Part shown: in pieces, positions 1,194 to 42,844 of the stretch
Layout: every line of letters begins with the position of its first letter
How positions within the stretch are numbered: the first letter of the stretch is position 1
Virus record (IMG/VR): IMGVR_UViG_2563366806_000003
DNA length: 43,220 bases
Direction: 5' to 3' (one strand)
DNA from: a virus
Taxonomy: Duplodnaviria; Heunggongvirae; Uroviricota; Caudoviricetes
Program-made: the position numbers and the translations under genes
The notes under the pieces: generated by a model
Seen by the model: the letters and a program-made list of their open reading frames with translations, nothing else
Told to the model about the DNA's origin: nothing
Database searches by the model: none

Positions 1194-1318
1194 AAAACAA
1201 GTAGTTATACACTTTGTGGGAGCCTATTGGGAACCCGGTGTTTTCATTTCAAGGTGTAATCCATGCCGGGCATCAGAATGAGATATAATGAGATTTTTAG
1301 TGTTCCGCTTGAGAGTCT

Positions 1319-1855
1319 ATGATGCTTACCCTAGACGAGATAGGTCAATCTGTACGTAACAATATCCAGTTGATTATTGATCATGTCGGCTTACCTCTTG
1401 CTGTTGGTCCGCTCAGTGATGATGATTACAAGATTCTGTGTGGTGGCTATGGTGAGCTTGAATGGGACTATGCGTTAAGCACCTATGGCAACTCCAGAGA
1501 AAAGTATGAGTTCTGCATAAAACTTGTTCAGCAAGGTCGGGTTCAGGGAATACCATCAGGAGCAGCAATTTGTGTTTATGGGGTTGAAGAAAACATCTTT
1601 CGTATCCATATGATCGAAAGGTTTTCTAGAGAAGATGAATCTCACCCATTGAAAGGGCGCATGGTTTTACTCACTCTTATGAGTGCTTTTATATTTTGTA
1701 AAGCTGTTGAATGTAAAGTTGTCCACATTGTAGAGCCAGTACCAGAACTGGTGCAGTATTACGAGTCTTTTGGTTTCCGCATGGAACAGTGCGGTTATGT
1801 GATGTCTGCAGTCATTGATGAGCTGCAGGATATCTTTCTTAAATTTGCTCAGTAG
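1319..1855 (+). CDS. Hypothetical cargo protein, 178 aa, weak GNAT-fold-like C-terminus (…YYESFGF…)
   Basis: AT-rich ORF just inside attL, opposite in orientation to the adjacent phage early genes; function not recognised. Confidence 0.5.
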   Translation: MMLTLDEIGQSVRNNIQLIIDHVGLPLAVGPLSDDDYKILCGGYGELEWDYALSTYGNSREKYEFCIKLVQQGRVQGIPSGAAICVYGVEENIFRIHMIERFSREDESHPLKGRMVLLTLMSAFIFCKAVECKVVHIVEPVPELVQYYESFGFRMEQCGYVMSAVIDELQDIFLKFAQ

Positions 1856-2051
1856 GTATAGACGAGAAGGGTCTACAAATTGTAGGATACCCGTCCAGAT
1901 TACCTTAAAGGTACATCTATGGCAGTCGTTTTGTGCTTAAACTACTAAGAAACGATGTCACCAATCGACATGATCGATTGGCATAAGTTAGCGAAACAAG
2001 CTAGCTTTAAAGAGAGGGTTAGAGACGCCTTTACTGTCTCGGGAGTTTTCT

Positions 2052-2225
2052 ATGAAAGATCAAAAAGCAACCAAGCCACAGGTTAAGTTCGACACAATGA
2101 AAGCATTCGCAGGTATGGGTGCTGCTGTTGAAGTTCTGATGAAGGCTGCTCCTAATGCGTTCACTCACGCTACTGTCTCTGGTAAAGAGCAGCAGGGTAA
2201 GCTTCGTCGTCGCAAAGCAGCATGA
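2052..2225 (+). CDS. Small hypothetical protein, 57 aa, basic C-terminus
   Basis: ATG preceded by GGAG at about -8; followed directly by a strong intrinsic terminator; upstream perfect palindrome ccaatcga-N5-tcgattgg (1961-1981). Below the 60-aa cutoff of the ORF track. Confidence 0.4.
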   Translation: MKDQKATKPQVKFDTMKAFAGMGAAVEVLMKAAPNAFTHATVSGKEQQGKLRRRKAA

Positions 2226-2244
2226 TCATAGCTGGTGCTTTTTG

Positions 2245-2272
2245 AAAACCCGCCTTTAGGCGGGTTTTTTCT
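2245..2272. terminator. Bidirectional intrinsic terminator (acccgcc-ttta-ggcgggt) between the small + gene and the leftward early operon
   Basis: GC hairpin flanked by an A-run upstream and a T-run downstream. Confidence 0.65.
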
Positions 2273-3646: not shown

Positions 3647-4783
3647 TCACTCCCCCTTCACGCCAATGCCAGCGGCGCGGTCAATACGTTCAATTTCTGC
3701 CAGAATAAGAGCGCCAGCTTTTACTAAGTCGCGGCGTGCTCCTGATTGCTTCCACCAGTCAGGAGACCACGGCCAATGTGCTGGAGTGGAGAAACCTTGG
3801 TTGTGCGCATGAATTGCGTAACAAGCCGCTGCATCTGCTAATTCGCTATTTTGATATGCGTTGTCATGTTCAGGAGTCCATCCTTCAACCGACTGTTGCC
3901 GCTGGCGTTCTGCTACCACATCAAGAATTGCGGGATTGAATGCGCCCCCCTCCAGTTCTGCTATGCGCTTCTCTGCGGCTTCCAACTCATCCAGCATCGC
4001 CAGCACGGTAGTGGGGTTTGCTGCGGAGTTCAGCGCGTTCAAGGCAGTGATATCTGCATCAAGCTGAGTTCCTTCTGCCAGTGAGATATCGAAAATGTCA
4101 TCAGGCGGCATAACACTAAGGCGCTCATGTTCGCCAACTGCTGCCGCTGCGATTTCACGCAGCGCCTGTTTGTCGATGTTGCTCATTGGACTGCCTCCTT
4201 TACGAAGCTGTTCGGCGATATCTTCGAGAACGCCATCAGAGAATGAGCGATCAAAATGGCTTTCCGGCGCATTAGTCATAAACTCAGTAGAGGTAAGGAT
4301 CATCCGGGCAATATCCGCGGCGTTCTTCGCAGTATCATCAATAAAACCAGCTTTCCAGGCTGCCAACATTCTGTTCGCCACAAAATAAGCGCCTTCCTTG
4401 CGTGCTTCAGTCTTCCCTTCAGCCAGAAAAGCATCGGTGGCTGGGGTTTTGATTTCGTTAAGCGCATCACTGAATCCACCACGCTCCATACCTAGCTCTG
4501 CTTCGTAATCGGCATCGAATGCAGCGTCTTTGCAGAACTTCTTCAGCTTTGCATTCTCCGCAGCCAGCGCTGAAAACTTCTCGTGTGCCAACTTAACAGC
4601 TGCATCAGCCTGCTTAATTGACTCAATCGCTTTCTGGTGGTCTTCGTACAGAGCCGAAATCTTGGCCTCCGCTTCAGCAAATTTACGCACCAGATATTCA
4701 GCGTTTGTTTCGTTCACTTTCAGATCTCGCGGTACACATTTCCCGCGAAGAAACCCTTCCATTTCGAAAACATTCATGCGCAT
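3647..4783 (-). CDS. Ead/Ea22-like early protein with coiled-coil region and DUF550-like (possible nucleotide pyrophosphohydrolase) C-terminal domain
   Basis: 378-aa ORF; C-terminal …EGWTPEHDNAYQNSELADAAACYAIHA… resembles the DUF550 family common in lambdoid early-left regions (recalled, not searched). Confidence 0.5.
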   Translation of the reverse strand: MRMNVFEMEGFLRGKCVPRDLKVNETNAEYLVRKFAEAEAKISALYEDHQKAIESIKQADAAVKLAHEKFSALAAENAKLKKFCKDAAFDADYEAELGMERGGFSDALNEIKTPATDAFLAEGKTEARKEGAYFVANRMLAAWKAGFIDDTAKNAADIARMILTSTEFMTNAPESHFDRSFSDGVLEDIAEQLRKGGSPMSNIDKQALREIAAAAVGEHERLSVMPPDDIFDISLAEGTQLDADITALNALNSAANPTTVLAMLDELEAAEKRIAELEGGAFNPAILDVVAERQRQQSVEGWTPEHDNAYQNSELADAAACYAIHAHNQGFSTPAHWPWSPDWWKQSGARRDLVKAGALILAEIERIDRAAGIGVKGE

Positions 4784-5337
4784 TTGCGTAACTCCGATAA
4801 CTCGTTAAAACGTTCCATAAACATCCCATAGGCATGGCCTGGCGACAGTGGAATAACTTTGAACATCTCTGTTGCCGGGATACCTTCCAGTACAGGCCAG
4901 AAAGAGCCATCATCAAGCCCGAGATCGCGGCGTTCGGTTGCCAGCATGATGAGATCGGCATATTTCACGGGCGTACTCATAACCGGGGGTAACCCGTATT
5001 TCTCACGGATTACGGCGTCTATTTTTTCTTCCATCCGTTTATAGTCAGGAAGAAGGCGTTTCAGTGGTGCGGGAATGTCCTGGCAATACGCTTCTGTTGC
5101 ATCATGCATTAACGCTTCAAAAGCAAATTCGTGCGGTACCAGCTGGCTGCAAAGCACCGCATGTTGGGCGACGCTGTAGAAGTGTGAAAGATGTCCTGCA
5201 AAGCGACAGATATTTGAAAGGGAAACCGCGATATCGTTAATAACGATGTCATCTTTATTTATCCTGTCATAATAAAAATGCTTCCCGGAAAAAGTTTTAA
5301 TAAATGACATTTTGTTCTCCACGTATATGCGCTGCAC
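4774..5337 (-). CDS. HD-domain phosphohydrolase (YfdR-like 5'-deoxynucleotidase)
   Basis: …AQHAVLCSQL…EALMHDATEAY… HD-type motif pattern; same position and order as yfdR in the CPS-53 yfdP-yfdQ-yfdR cluster. Confidence 0.65.
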   Translation of the reverse strand: MQRIYVENKMSFIKTFSGKHFYYDRINKDDIVINDIAVSLSNICRFAGHLSHFYSVAQHAVLCSQLVPHEFAFEALMHDATEAYCQDIPAPLKRLLPDYKRMEEKIDAVIREKYGLPPVMSTPVKYADLIMLATERRDLGLDDGSFWPVLEGIPATEMFKVIPLSPGHAYGMFMERFNELSELRKCA

Positions 5338-6719: not shown

Positions 6720-7125
6720 AAGGTCGGTTAGTTTCTCCACAAAACAGAGAAGAACACCTGCGGTGACTGCCGCCCGGATGGATTGGGTTATGAGCCCGTC
6801 GTCCGGTGATGCTCTTCTCTGTTTTGTAAAAAGGACGGTACCAGCCGGAAGCAATGGTACAAGCTGGTACCGCCAAGACTACACACAGCATAAAGTTGTG
6901 GTGCCGGGTGCCTCCCGGTGCCTGGCGAAGGTTGCACACCAGGCGGGTGGGTATCCACAGAAGGTCGACTGTCAGCCTCAACCTTAACCCGCGTGCGCTG
7001 AGCCGCATTCACCACAACGCTAAGGATTCTCTCTGGTTGAAAATACTTAGCTGTTATGTGCCTGTCTTTTCACCACTTCAGGCTCGGTGGTATCCTTTTA
7101 AGCCCGTATACATAAAAGGAAAATC
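6720..7125 (-). other. GC-rich, highly structured non-coding region (candidate ncRNA or cis-regulatory RNA structure)
   Basis: 15-bp perfect inverted repeat caaaacagagaaga (6739-6753 / 6813-6827), second stem ggtaccagc/gctggtacc (6837-6871), further GC-rich palindromes; ORFs here on both strands have non-protein-like composition. Confidence 0.3.
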
Positions 7126-38628: not shown

Positions 38629-38683
38629 ATGCAGAAATAGCGCGCAAATGGCATCGTTCCTGTTTTTGTCAGGAGGAGCTATC

Positions 38684-39240
38684 ATGCTTATTGGCTATGT
38701 TCGCGTATCAACAAATGACCAGAACACCGATCTACAACGTAATGCGTTGAACTGTGCAGGATGTGAGCTGATTTTTGAAGACAAGATAAGCGGTACAAAG
38801 TCCGACAGACCAGGACTGAAAAAGCTGCTCAGGACATTATCGGCAGGTGACACGCTGGTGGTCTGGAAACTGGACCGACTGGGGCGCAGTATGCGGCATC
38901 TTGTCGTGCTGGTGGAAGAGTTGCGCGAACGTGGCGTTAATTTTCGCAGCCTGACGGATGCTATTGATACCAGCACACCAATGGGGCGCTTTTTCTTTCA
39001 TGTGATGGGTGCCCTGGCTGAAATGGAGCGAGAGTTTATTGTCGAACGTACTAGGGCGGCTTTGCCGCAGCACGACAAGAAGGGAGGAACGGTGGGCGAA
39101 AGCCAAAGCTGACAGTAGAACAATGGGGGCAGGCTGGCAGGTTGATTGAATCGGGAATATATCAGCAGCAAGTCGCACTGATTTATGATCTGGGTATTTC
39201 AACGGTGTATAAAAAATTCCCTGTAGCAAGTAAACCATAG
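38684..39240 (+). pseudogene. Gin/Pin/Hin-family serine DNA invertase, disrupted by a single-base frameshift
   Basis: MLIGYVRVSTNDQNTDLQ… catalytic domain runs to 39112; the HTH domain (GRKPKLTVEQWGQAGRLIE…VALIYDLGISTVYKKFP) continues in another frame to 39240; join point at agggcggctttgcc (about 39052-39062) consistent with loss of one G. Confidence 0.75.
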
Positions 39241-39266: not shown

Positions 39267-39962
39267 TTATGCACTATTTTTAGGTCTTGTAACCCGAGGT
39301 GGGAGTTGTTTGGTTATATGTTCAAGTGATTTTTTGCCCAAGATAGTTCTTTGGACAAAACTTTCTATAGCTTCTAGCATTTGTTCGAACTCACTTTTAT
39401 TCGGGCTCCAACTGCGATGTGCGGCGGCGTTTCCTGCATCAATTACTGAAGATATAACGCATGCCTCAGTGTCGCCTATGACTCCATCTTGTTTTAATTT
39501 TTCAACTTTTTCACCAAGCGGCAAACCGGGGTGAATTTGTAACAGTTCAGCAGTTCGATCAAAAATCGTCCGTAAACCGATGGACGAAAGAATGAAATGG
39601 TCAGAAGTATATGAAGAATACATTTCATTAAATATTTGAAAGAGCTGACGATCAACTGATTCAAGCTTGGATAACCATATCGGAGCTTGAAATGTTTCAG
39701 CGGCAGGATAGGTAGTGATCATATCTATAGGCGTTTCTACAAATTCACCATCACGATATTCGTGGGTAGTATGCTCACTGAAGTGTTCGTTGTGGTGATA
39801 GAAGACAGTATCACAGCCATTGCATTGGAGTAGGTGATGGTAATGGTACCCATAAACTGGATATTGGGAATCCTCCCAGCTAGTGGTTAGCTTCCCATGC
39901 ACAGTGCAGTTACGTAACCCACCGCATGTAGGGCAAAGAGCCTTGAGTATTTCCTTTTTCAT
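39267..39962 (-). CDS. Hypothetical Zn-ribbon protein (231 aa), candidate defence/exclusion cargo; function not recognised
   Basis: AT-rich ORF antisense to the tail operon; N-terminal CPTCGG…C and CNGC cysteine pairs; the rest matches nothing I recognise. Confidence 0.55.
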   Translation of the reverse strand: MKKEILKALCPTCGGLRNCTVHGKLTTSWEDSQYPVYGYHYHHLLQCNGCDTVFYHHNEHFSEHTTHEYRDGEFVETPIDMITTYPAAETFQAPIWLSKLESVDRQLFQIFNEMYSSYTSDHFILSSIGLRTIFDRTAELLQIHPGLPLGEKVEKLKQDGVIGDTEACVISSVIDAGNAAAHRSWSPNKSEFEQMLEAIESFVQRTILGKKSLEHITKQLPPRVTRPKNSA

Positions 39963-40620: not shown

Positions 40621-41718
40621 TCAAGAGGTCTTATTTCTGCTCCTTTGGAGCTCTTCAAAACGATTATGTAAAGATTTCGGATACAGTTCGGTATATACCT
40701 GCCATAGCACGTTTAATGAACGATGCCCTGTAACTTGGGCGACTTCCTCAATACTAAAACCAGCCTCAAATAAGCGACTTGCCCCTTCTCTACGCAAATC
40801 ATGGTATCGCAGATCCTTAATACCTAATTTGCTTCTTACTCTCTGAAATCCCGCAGTAACAGAAGTGCTGTTATATGGAAAAATGAATTCCGATTTTTGG
40901 GGCTGTCGTTGGACGATATCCCAGGCTTCCCCAAGCAAGGCTACTTTCATGTGGTTGCCTTCCTTTTTGCGTGGATCTTTCCTGTCTCTTACGAGTATAG
41001 ATTTTTGTTCCTGGTCGAGATCTTCCCATCGTAACCGGCATACTTCTCCGATTCGCATACAGGACCATACAGAAAATTTGAGGATATCAACGAACGGAAT
41101 TTTTGAGCATTTATGAGTAGATCGTTGTTGAAGGCCTGCAATGAGCATGTCCAGTTCATCAGATGCTGGTCTACGATTACGACGGTTTGATTTACCAATC
41201 AAACCAAGTTTAAGTAGATATGGGCGAGCGCTTTTCGCCGGGTTTGATGTGTAATTAATTCCGTATACAGGTTTGGCCGCATCCAGAACACTGCCAAGAT
41301 AACTAACATCGTGGCTGACTGTTGCAGGACCTGCACCAGCGTTGTTTCTTAGCCTGCAATGTTCAATTACGTCATTTTCTGTCAGTTCAGATAGTTTGAT
41401 CGCGGAGATGTCACTATCCATAAGCAGTTCCAGCACATATCTTTTAGTACGGCCTGCTTTACCTCCGGCATTTGGGTCATTTAAATATTTGTGTAGTAAG
41501 TCACGGACTGTAAGTCCGTCAACTGCATTTGATGATGGAATACCATATAGATCTAATTCCATCACTTTCTGTGTGCCCCATGTTTTGGCATGAGCATGTT
41601 TAGGGAATGTTTTGCTTTCCCTGTAAGTGATAACACCTTTTTCTTTGATAATCACATTACAGCGATAGCGTGGTGTGCCATCGGATTTTAGTCGTTTCTC
41701 TATGTTATAGTACGCCAT
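40621..41718 (-). CDS. int: Tyrosine integrase (dusA-specific type)
   Basis: 365 aa with C-terminal catalytic region (…HDLRREGASRLFEAG…VTGHRSLNVLWQVY…); adjacent and divergent to dusA. Confidence 0.9.
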   Translation of the reverse strand: MAYYNIEKRLKSDGTPRYRCNVIIKEKGVITYRESKTFPKHAHAKTWGTQKVMELDLYGIPSSNAVDGLTVRDLLHKYLNDPNAGGKAGRTKRYVLELLMDSDISAIKLSELTENDVIEHCRLRNNAGAGPATVSHDVSYLGSVLDAAKPVYGINYTSNPAKSARPYLLKLGLIGKSNRRNRRPASDELDMLIAGLQQRSTHKCSKIPFVDILKFSVWSCMRIGEVCRLRWEDLDQEQKSILVRDRKDPRKKEGNHMKVALLGEAWDIVQRQPQKSEFIFPYNSTSVTAGFQRVRSKLGIKDLRYHDLRREGASRLFEAGFSIEEVAQVTGHRSLNVLWQVYTELYPKSLHNRFEELQRSRNKTS

Positions 41719-41806: not shown

Positions 41807-42844
41807 ATGCACGATAATCATGAAACACAAAAAATTAATCAAACCAGCGTGATGCCTGAAAAAACTGGTGTTTACTGGAATTCTCGGTTTAGCATTGCTC
41901 CTATGCTCGACTGGACGGACAGACATTGCCGCTATTTCTTGCGTCTGCTTTCCCGCAATACGTTGCTGTATACTGAAATGGTAACTACAGGGGCGATTAT
42001 TCACGGTAAAGGTGATTACCTGGCGTATAGTGAAGAAGAACATCCGGTAGCGTTGCAACTCGGCGGTAGCGATCCGGCGGCGCTGGCGCAGTGTGCGAAG
42101 CTGGCAGAAGCGCGTGGATATGATGAGATCAACCTGAATGTCGGCTGCCCGTCTGACCGGGTGCAGAACGGCATGTTTGGTGCGTGTCTGATGGGTAATG
42201 CGCAGCTGGTTGCCGACTGCGTGAAAGCGATGCGCGATGTGGTGTCGATTCCGGTGACGGTGAAAACGCGTATTGGCATCGACGACCAGGACAGCTATGA
42301 ATTTCTCTGCGATTTCATCAACACCGTTTCCGGCAAAGGCGAGTGTGAGATGTTCATCATCCATGCACGTAAAGCCTGGCTTTCGGGGTTAAGTCCGAAA
42401 GAAAACCGTGAGATCCCGCCGCTCGATTATCCGCGTGTGTATCAACTGAAGCGTGACTTTCCGCATCTGACAATGTCGATTAACGGTGGTATCAAGTCGC
42501 TGGAAGAGGCCAAAGCACACCTGCAACATATGGATGGCGTGATGGTCGGGCGCGAGGCGTATCAGAATCCGGGTATTCTGGCGGCGGTAGACCGGGAGAT
42601 CTTTGGTTCCTCGGATATCGATGCCGATCCGGTGGCGGTAGTGCGCGCCATGTATCCGTACATTGAGCGTGAACTCAGCCAGGGGACGTATCTCGGTCAT
42701 ATTACCCGGCATATGTTGGGCTTGTTCCAGGGTATTCCTGGCGCGCGGCAGTGGCGGCGTTATTTAAGTGAAAACGCCCATAAAGCGGGTGCAGACATTA
42801 ATGTGCTGGAACACGCGCTCAAACTGGTGGCGGATAAGCGTTAA
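41807..42844 (+). CDS. dusA: tRNA-dihydrouridine(20/20a) synthase DusA; first ~32 codons supplied by the prophage
   Basis: 345 aa Dus-family protein; N-terminus [35 protein letters not shown] differs from the displaced native N-terminus at 1071-1175. Confidence 0.9.

Follow-up and report, generated by a model that had tools for sequence, protein, structure and literature searches.

Introduction

The GNAT-RHH toxin-antitoxin systems, such as TacAT, AtaRT, KacAT and ItaRT, carry an RHH/DUF1778 antitoxin upstream, and the classic phage morons are usually single genes. These are the two kinds of element that appear closest to the two-gene cassette analysed in this work, which lies within positions 1194-2272 of the virus record IMGVR_UViG_2563366806_000003 (Caudoviricetes); the whole stretch of 43,220 nucleotides is called the window here, and it is an Escherichia coli lambdoid, mEp460-like prophage inserted in the 5′ end of dusA. 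Judged from its sequence, the cassette has no match to a catalogued defence system or RNA family. It consists of two open reading frames (ORFs):

1319-1855, + strand: ORF178, a divergent GNAT-fold acyltransferase-like protein, acidic (pI 4.8)
2052-2225, + strand: ORF57, its small basic partner (pI 10.5; 12 K+R versus 4 D+E), predicted to have one amphipathic helix with the rest disordered, ending in ...KAA

Compared with the GNAT-RHH systems, the partner in this cassette is downstream, basic and disordered, without RHH/DUF1778 or any other Pfam match, and the GNAT protein is acidic and has a non-canonical P-loop; nor was a sequence relationship to those systems found (no Pfam or NCBIfam match; PDB profile E values of 0.1 or higher). 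The upstream RHH antitoxin, by which the GNAT-RHH systems are defined, is absent from the cassette.

The cassette resembles phage morons (bor and lom of lambda, and those of HK97) in having a promoter-like element on one side and a terminator on the other, in being AT-rich relative to the phage backbone, and in being carried by only some relatives at positions that differ between phages. It is inserted between backbone genes at varying positions and has a distinct base composition; with regard to the flanking signals, the terminator is clear and conserved, and the promoter-like hexamers match the consensus at no more than 8 of 12 positions. Unlike the classic morons, it is a conserved two-gene unit with a putative internal promoter and a structured leader, and in placing such a putative promoter before a second, small gene it is like the reverse-order toxin-antitoxin modules mqsRA and higBA.

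Results

ORF178 and ORF57 move as one unit among prophages

ORF57 was found to be an obligate neighbour of ORF178, and the pair moves as a unit among the cargo and defence slots of prophages. By tblastn, ORF57 lies downstream of an ORF178 relative in 97 of 98 loci, and the single exception, in Brenneria, has a divergent ORF57 homologue of 61 amino acids; the most distant members recovered by a word-indexed search, from Shewanella (43%) and Edwardsiella (46%), are likewise accompanied by an ORF57 homologue. In a set of 5426 complete E. coli genomes, 562 carry ORF57 and 358 carry ORF178, with O157, O145, O111 and enterotoxigenic (ETEC) strains represented; apart from copies interrupted by a contig end, ORF178 is intact throughout.

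At least five different prophage contexts hold the pair. It occupies the slot between attP and xis in E. coli and Salmonella, where it is convergent with the early operon; in Enterobacter it lies between a RusA/DUF968/Q-type region and the methylase-holin-lysozyme genes, in phage Eeyore after a Q-like gene, in Photorhabdus amid tail and baseplate genes and in the same orientation as the late tail operon, in Pseudescherichia at the prophage edge beside the chromosomal eamA, and in an Edwardsiella P2-like prophage between gpA (Phage_GPA) and the portal gene. The last of these positions is the P2 antiviral hotspot defined by Rousset et al. 2022 (PMC9122126), and the Edwardsiella pair of a GNAT and a small ORF thus sits where the gpA-gpQ hotspot cargo (old, tin and others; PMC9122126) is found; unlike the systems described for this hotspot, in a text that contains neither 'GNAT' nor 'acetyltransferase' (PMC9122126), it has no PADLOC model match.

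An earlier model-made reading of the letters of the window (the original prediction) had taken the unit for autonomous, compositionally distinct cargo near the attachment site. This view is upheld by the occurrence of the same pair at unrelated prophage positions, and by the presence of another gene pair, PanAT, in the same slot between att and xis (see below). The AT-richness noted there is also real, in that the module has a GC content of 42.7% against 51.6% for the prophage, and only 1.6% of equal-sized prophage windows are equally AT-rich. The ORFs, the palindrome and the terminator were all located where they had been placed, with the genes on the opposite strand to the neighbouring phage operon.

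GNAT relatives at 17-25% identity are followed by an ORF of 55-61 amino acids, the sequence of which is unrelated to ORF57. These small ORFs are alike among themselves (MR[ST].[EQ]E[IL]L.SL.PE..ANY), and the distant GNAT genes (locus L197, 4001-4825; locus L198, 290-1101) are apparently chromosomal and non-prophage, beside bcs or malQ genes.

An alternative PanAT allele leaves an orphan ORF57

In about 200 E. coli genomes, a Panacea toxin-antitoxin pair (PanAT), made up of a Panacea-domain protein and a gene of 128/139 amino acids, replaces the part of the window from about 1245 to 2039, comprising the putative promoter, ORF178 and the leader, and this replacement was seen in every ORF178-less locus inspected, in sibling dusA-integrating phages (loci L018, L019 and L111-L113). 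One joint of the swap lies directly after the att arm and the other at the Shine-Dalgarno sequence of ORF57 (about 2039-2042), sparing only this sequence and ORF57 itself. The arm is the following feature:

1194-1244, strand unspecified: conserved att arm, phage backbone and not cargo, near-identical in the phages with the PanAT allele and conserved in a Salmonella-type relative

Similarity between the alleles stops at about 1243, which places the arm outside the cargo and delimits the exchangeable unit to about 1245-2039. PanA-PanT, in which the Panacea domain belongs to the antitoxin, is an alternative allele, made of unrelated proteins, at exactly the same att-arm/ORF57 junction of dusA-integrating E. 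coli phages, and its presence there suggests that the slot selects this kind of cargo. PanAT pairs found elsewhere, at 70-85% identity, are without ORF57; therefore, the ORF57 beside PanAT is a leftover of the GNAT cassette, and its being a component of PanAT was ruled out on the same ground.

The fate of this leftover was followed in ORF57 alleles at least 94% identical to that of the window. Nonsynonymous versus synonymous variant codons numbered 3 versus 9 in ORF57 linked to ORF178 and 15 versus 3 in the orphan (Fisher P 0.0024), the changes in the orphan include some at family-invariant residues (P34H, K50E and A57V), and the two truncated forms that were looked up, of 48 and 49 amino acids, were both in the orphan/PanAT context. 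By this pattern of codon changes, ORF57 is shown to be under purifying selection only alongside ORF178, with the orphan decaying. The decay of the orphan, taken with the intact ORF178 copies, therefore indicates that the function of ORF57 depends on ORF178.

Further genes were seen at this place: in ETEC H10407, an additional CoiA-like gene lies between ORF57 and xis, and in one Salmonella prophage (locus L105) an HTH_XRE-2TM gene is found there.

ORF178 is predicted to have a complete but divergent GNAT fold

The start codon of ORF178 in RefSeq and in its homologues is the second ATG, at 1322, which gives a protein of 177 amino acids and is the likely start. Upstream of it, a candidate promoter element was noted:

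1284-1289, + strand: putative -10 element of the ORF178 promoter, TATAAT, proposed from its recurrence across genera

A TAnAAT-type hexamer recurs 30-45 nt 5′ of the start codon in cassettes from many genera, and an upstream terminator often precedes the cassette and this -10-like hexamer. A CTTTTACA box is repeated about 33 nt upstream of the hexamer in many cassettes of different genera (1245-1318 in the window and the equivalents in loci L004-L100); at this distance it does not qualify as the -35 element of the hexamer, and it may be a regulator site.

PHROGs assigns ORF178 to phrog_4350 and ORF57 to phrog_2741, both of unknown function. ORF178 had no Pfam or NCBIfam match at permissive cut-offs (E ≤ 1 and E ≤ 10), ORF57 none in Pfam, NCBIfam or PADLOC, and sequence searches of the PDB with two profiles returned nothing significant for ORF178 (profile E 0.1-1 at best). 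These results accord with the earlier statement that neither protein could be assigned to a known system. Nor did the searches give any homology to a housekeeping or structural protein; the fold match obtained, for ORF178, was to GNAT.

The AlphaFold2 (AF2) model of ORF178, built with 39 homologues, has a pLDDT of 92.5, and the mixed alpha/beta GNAT fold (beta1-alpha1-alpha2-beta2-4-alpha3-beta5-alpha4-beta6) spans the whole chain; the weak GNAT-like character assigned earlier to the C-terminus thus holds as to the fold and fails as to its confinement to the C-terminal part. A Foldseek search with the model matched 308 PDB GNAT chains at E ≤ 1e-3, and many GNAT subfamilies matched equally well; therefore, the fold gives no substrate. 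A fold search of BFVD likewise returned generic viral GNATs only. When the ORF178 profile was run against 1.84 billion cluster representatives, only 95 relatives were recovered, and the ten distant ones checked carried no Pfam domain (none at E ≤ 0.01), so that no bridge leads from ORF178 to a characterised family.

Sub-threshold PDB matches of a broad ORF178-family profile comprise acetyltransferases in seven of nine cases, and the eighth, MJ1062 (3eo4), is the top fold match of Foldseek. The alignments fall on the motif-B ...YY..FGF, where HMMER pairs the Y148 segment with FYERFGF/FYKKFGF of solved acetyltransferases. W49 and Y148 never vary within the family (95 clusters, 17-47% identity) and G152 and F153 hardly do, and a Glu of beta4 and H-P-L-x-G-R/K-M are largely kept. 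ORF178 therefore contains GNAT motif B, i.e., Y-x-x-x-G-F with the conserved alpha4 Tyr, and at the place of motif A has H109-P-L-K-G113-R-M115 after a long insert, where only the central Gly is retained; backbone-mediated binding of coenzyme A is possible from this arrangement. Together, the model and the searches show ORF178 as a predicted complete but divergent GNAT acyltransferase fold, of a small family outside the curated libraries searched.

ORF57 is a small conserved coding gene

The ratio of nonsynonymous to synonymous substitution rates (dN/dS) of ORF57 against cassettes of other genera is 0.1-0.35, which marks it as a true coding gene and rules out a non-coding or dual-function RNA at this place. 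Conserved in the protein are F-D-T...M-G-A-A-V-E-V-L-M-K-A-A-P..F, a Q-G-K motif, the basic tail and the C-terminal ...K-A-A. AF2 gave a pLDDT of 62 and a single helix at residues 22-32, a confidence too low for a fold search. A further ORF of 43 amino acids (1955-2086), overlapping the palindrome, was rejected as a gene, being unconserved beyond close relatives and without a family match.

Between the window and loci L004-L011, the synonymous divergence (dS) of ORF57 is 0.33-0.55, far below that of ORF178 in the same pairs, which is saturated. These values point to mosaic recombination, with ORF57 and the terminator as a conserved anchor and a seemingly later exchange of the 3′ half of the cassette than of the 5′ half.

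A putative promoter and a four-hairpin leader precede ORF57

The spacer between the two genes, together with the region 3′ of ORF57, contains the following elements:

1859-1864 and 1883-1888, + strand: putative internal promoter of ORF57, TAGACG, an 18-nt spacer and TAGGAT, directly after the ORF178 stop codon
1897-1918, + strand: leader hairpin P1, with the core TTACC-N5-GGTA at 1900-1914; 92% of cells paired, arms almost invariant
1961-1981, + strand: leader hairpin P2, the 8-5-8 palindrome of the original prediction; conserved stem, variable loop
1985-2007, + strand: leader hairpin P3; 87.5% of cells paired, 4 of 8 pairs changed on both sides (GC, AU, UA, UG)
2022-2045, + strand: leader hairpin P4 (GAGAC...GTCTC, 2022-2040), abutting the Shine-Dalgarno sequence GGGAG (2041-2045); conserved, loops vary, one-sided changes G-U
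2244-2276, + strand: intrinsic terminator closing the cassette, an 11-bp stem (6 G-C pairs) and a T run at 2244-2269, abutting the xis stop codon

In 23 distinct enteric spacers, which also made up the leader alignment, the hexamers TAGACG and TA[G/C]GAT are invariant and the 18-nt gap between them is fixed in length and varies in sequence; Xenorhabdus and Brenneria keep TAGACA-N16-TAGGAT/TAGAAT though the remaining spacer differs. The element matches the consensus at 8 of 12 positions and was unflagged by a promoter scan. From this conservation, we infer that TAGACG-N18-TAGGAT is an internal sigma-70-type promoter for ORF57.

The palindrome reads CCAATCGA-CATGA-TCGATTGG exactly at 1961-1981. 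A perfect 8-bp inverted repeat arises in 13% of mononucleotide shuffles of about 1 kb, so that it is the conservation across genera and not the repeat alone that makes the palindrome real: P2 is conserved in Escherichia, Salmonella-type, Enterobacter, Pseudescherichia and Franconibacter cassettes. RNAalifold recovers P1-P3 from the alignment. For P1-P4 pooled, pairing reaches 86% of cells, against 23-45% in controls with the partners shifted by 1-3 columns; changes on both sides number 35 cells against 1-10 in these controls, and the covariation score is 0.231 against at most 0.09. The non-Watson-Crick cells also differ between the strands: on the + strand, those of the 8-bp core of P2 are 24 G-U, 3 A-C and 3 other, and G-U stands to A-C as 21:5 in P3 and 14:6 in P4. 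The RNA of the + strand folds with a z of -3.6 (0 of 200 shuffles as good), that of the - strand with -1.4. Based on these patterns, P2 is most likely one hairpin of a conserved four-hairpin + strand leader of ORF57, and an RNA hairpin is likelier than a DNA operator.

Spacers of the distant cassettes (Photorhabdus, Shewanella, Edwardsiella, Brenneria and Eeyore) have no significant structure, with Xenorhabdus and, marginally, Shewanella as exceptions; therefore, the four-hairpin leader is specific to the Enterobacteriaceae-type cassette. It is like the structured leaders that stabilise bacterial mRNAs or gate their translation, such as the ompA 5′ untranslated region, in that its first hairpin begins close to the predicted 5′ end, within a few nucleotides, and is followed by further hairpins, the last of which abuts the Shine-Dalgarno sequence. 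Unlike simple stabiliser hairpins, two of its stems are conserved in sequence, and it belongs to no Rfam family: Rfam 15 gave no covariance-model match at E ≤ 1 within 1860-2050, with hits only on the terminator or elsewhere.

The terminator 3′ of ORF57 is kept in other genera, and all enteric copies of the cassette share it at their end. It had been described as strong and bidirectional, of which the + strand part is borne out by the stem and T run; on the - strand, the stem is followed by TTTTC-AAAAAG, a poor T tract, and the terminator scan gave it a score on the + strand only, so that the case for bidirectionality is weak.

The spacer RNA was also compared with sRNA-17, an ArcA-regulated prophage small RNA of E. 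coli K1 RS218 located in an mEp460-like prophage (PMC7719688), and this identity was ruled out, as the sRNA-17 sequence maps at about 6835 and not in the module. At 6830-6905 the window has a hairpin-rich stretch (...acggtaccagccggaagcaatggtacaagctggtaccgcc...) in which 19 of 21 probe bases match sRNA-17.

Discussion

Based on the findings in this work, the best explanation of the cassette is a mobile two-gene phage accessory, or moron, with the putative order of promoter, ORF178, internal promoter, structured leader, ORF57 and terminator. The contexts in which it is found suggest a possible role in defence or lysogenic conversion.

For the function of the pair, we propose, at a probability of roughly 40%, that a GNAT effector is restrained by the small and labile ORF57, with abortive infection or prophage addiction as the outcome. 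The acidic GNAT protein ORF178 would be the effector, acylating a cellular or phage target, and the small, basic and disordered ORF57 would bind, restrain or direct it in the manner of an antitoxin, the charges of the two proteins being complementary (pI 4.8 and 10.5). Owing to its own putative promoter and a leader that would stabilise the transcript or control its translation, ORF57 could be made in excess of ORF178. Its C-terminal Ala-Ala may render it proteolytically labile and, by analogy with the ssrA-type ClpX signals, may act as a protease tag, and if ORF57 were thus lost in an infected or stressed cell, the enzyme would be set free, leading to abortive infection or prophage addiction.

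Several points weigh against this proposal. In being acidic, ORF178 differs from the tRNA-binding GNAT toxins; it lacks the motif A loop Q/R-x-x-G-x-G/A, and with a loop as non-canonical as HPLKGRM its catalysis is not assured from sequence. ORF57 is downstream and has no recognisable domain, whereas the known GNAT pairs have an upstream RHH antitoxin, and within the Enterobacteriaceae its conservation exceeds that of ORF178, whereas most antitoxins show the reverse. The orphan ORF57 represents one recombination joint, and speaks for dependence on ORF178 and not for which partner is harmful. Both promoters are proposed from conservation only; the leader sequences are phylogenetically related and thus offer few independent changes; and P1 and P2 have arms that keep their sequence rather than covary freely and that share TTACC/GGTAA ends, so that a sequence-specific protein possibly recognises them, in the RNA or even in the DNA. 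ORF178, ORF57 and the 43-amino-acid ORF had no match in PADLOC-DB v2 at E ≤ 10, and in the literature we found no paper naming these proteins, their accessions or PHROG identifiers, and nothing relevant on GNAT-based defence.

Other explanations account for part of the same evidence. ORF178 may acetylate the Lys-rich ORF57, or use it as a specificity subunit, so that the modified protein or the complex would be the active species (e.g. on nucleic acid, the ribosome or the nucleoid) and both genes would be needed for a single function in lysogenic conversion or exclusion. This arrangement of enzyme and substrate or adaptor accounts equally well for the strict pairing and for the purifying selection on both genes, and the complementary charges, the 9 Lys and conserved N-terminus of ORF57, and its decay after the loss of ORF178 also speak for it; we nevertheless consider it unlikely, since a separate putative promoter and an elaborate leader fit an independent dosage of ORF57 better than a stoichiometric pair. 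Less probable again is a role in counter-defence or host takeover during lytic growth and not in a defence expressed by the prophage, for example by a GNAT that acetylates and inactivates a host immune or metabolic protein. GNATs are common in phages, the location in Enterobacter and Eeyore between a Q-type antiterminator or RusA and the lysis genes would allow late read-through, and the Photorhabdus copy is co-oriented within the late tail operon. However, the cassette of E. coli and Salmonella is convergent with the early operon and has its own terminator, the conserved -10-like element, often with a terminator before it, is the layout of genes of a repressed prophage, genes for exclusion or for toxin-antitoxin pairs are what these slots hold elsewhere, and no characterised anti-defence protein stood out among the fold matches.

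As for the palindrome, the original prediction regarded it as an operator; in that case a dimeric regulator encoded by the module or the host would bind there and repress ORF57 or the whole module. Toxin-antitoxin loci are typically autoregulated at palindromes, and the conservation across genera of the arms of P1 (TTACC...GGTAA) and P2 (ACCAATCG...CGATTGGT), with loops that vary, fits recognition by a sequence-specific protein. Yet neither ORF178 nor ORF57 has an HTH, RHH or other DNA-binding domain in Pfam, ORF57 is predicted to be mostly disordered, and P2, some 65 nt 3′ of the promoter-like element, does not overlap it. The asymmetries of P2 are nearly all G-U-compatible on the + strand (24 versus 3), changes in the neighbouring P3 are truly compensatory, folding better than that of shuffles is confined to the + strand, and a lone palindrome of 8 bp could arise by chance in a region of this kind. 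The operator is therefore not supported here and the RNA leader is preferred, and we regard the operator as the least probable of these alternatives.

If the restrained-effector reading is right, the cassette could, as a tentative and rather doubtful extension, be the first representative of a new class of toxin-antitoxin or abortive-infection systems based on GNAT proteins, in which a P-loop-divergent acidic GNAT is joined to a disordered basic restrainer without a DNA-binding domain, the supply of which would be set post-transcriptionally by the four-hairpin leader, an RNA hitherto undescribed. The cassette is present in ~6-10% of complete E. coli genomes and moves among the hotspots of lambdoid, P2-like and myovirus-type prophages. 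If it is an immunity or addiction module, phage defence would gain a mechanism based on a GNAT, with a regulator that is small and unusual. The cassette is common in E. coli and also occurs in Salmonella, Enterobacter and Photorhabdus, yet its two proteins carry only the annotation 'hypothetical' and belong to no curated family; the pair is thus a well-delimited and widespread candidate for experiment. The PanAT allele swap with its decaying orphan partner amounts to an unusually clean natural experiment, and the leader is a candidate for a new cis-regulatory RNA motif. Should the pair be inert cargo, the value would be modest, namely the correct annotation of a widespread gene pair and of an exchangeable att-proximal slot in dusA-integrating phages.

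Prophage setting and neighbouring genes

Over the region of the cassette, the identity to phage mEp460 is 98%, and prophages of O145:H28, O111 and other strains match at 100%. The features around it are as follows:

1065-1193, + strand: attL with the dusA 5′ remnant, 42 codons with a phage-derived stop at the end; its translation matches the DusA N-terminus (RefSeq: partial tRNA-dihydrouridine synthase)
2273-2581, - strand: xis, excisionase of the PrtN family (Pfam PF11112, E 4e-23; PHROG excisionase), the first gene of the leftward phage operon
2591-3166, - strand: exonuclease
40621-41718, - strand: int, the integrase, adjoining the intact dusA
41807-42844: intact dusA, its first codons phage-supplied, at the far end of the window beside int

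The insertion in dusA agrees with the published dusA-specific integrase family (PMC4482086). In the free phage, the gene order is int - attP - ORF178 - ORF57 - xis - exo; therefore, the module is located between attP and the excisionase gene, and ORF178 and ORF57 are oriented opposite to xis and to the exonuclease and other early genes.

In strain RM12581 (locus L001, 9240-11231), an otherwise identical prophage has IS600 in an HD-family hydrolase (yfdR-like) gene, a copy of which appears without interruption in the window at about 4774-5337. At the opposite end of the prophage, an ORF of 231 amino acids (39267-39962, - strand), flanked by a resolvase-type invertase gene (38648-39112) on one side and dinI/int on the other, is a second candidate for att-proximal cargo. 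Its N-terminus is Cys-rich, it contains a DUF4145 domain (Pfam E 9e-10), and it has no PADLOC match.

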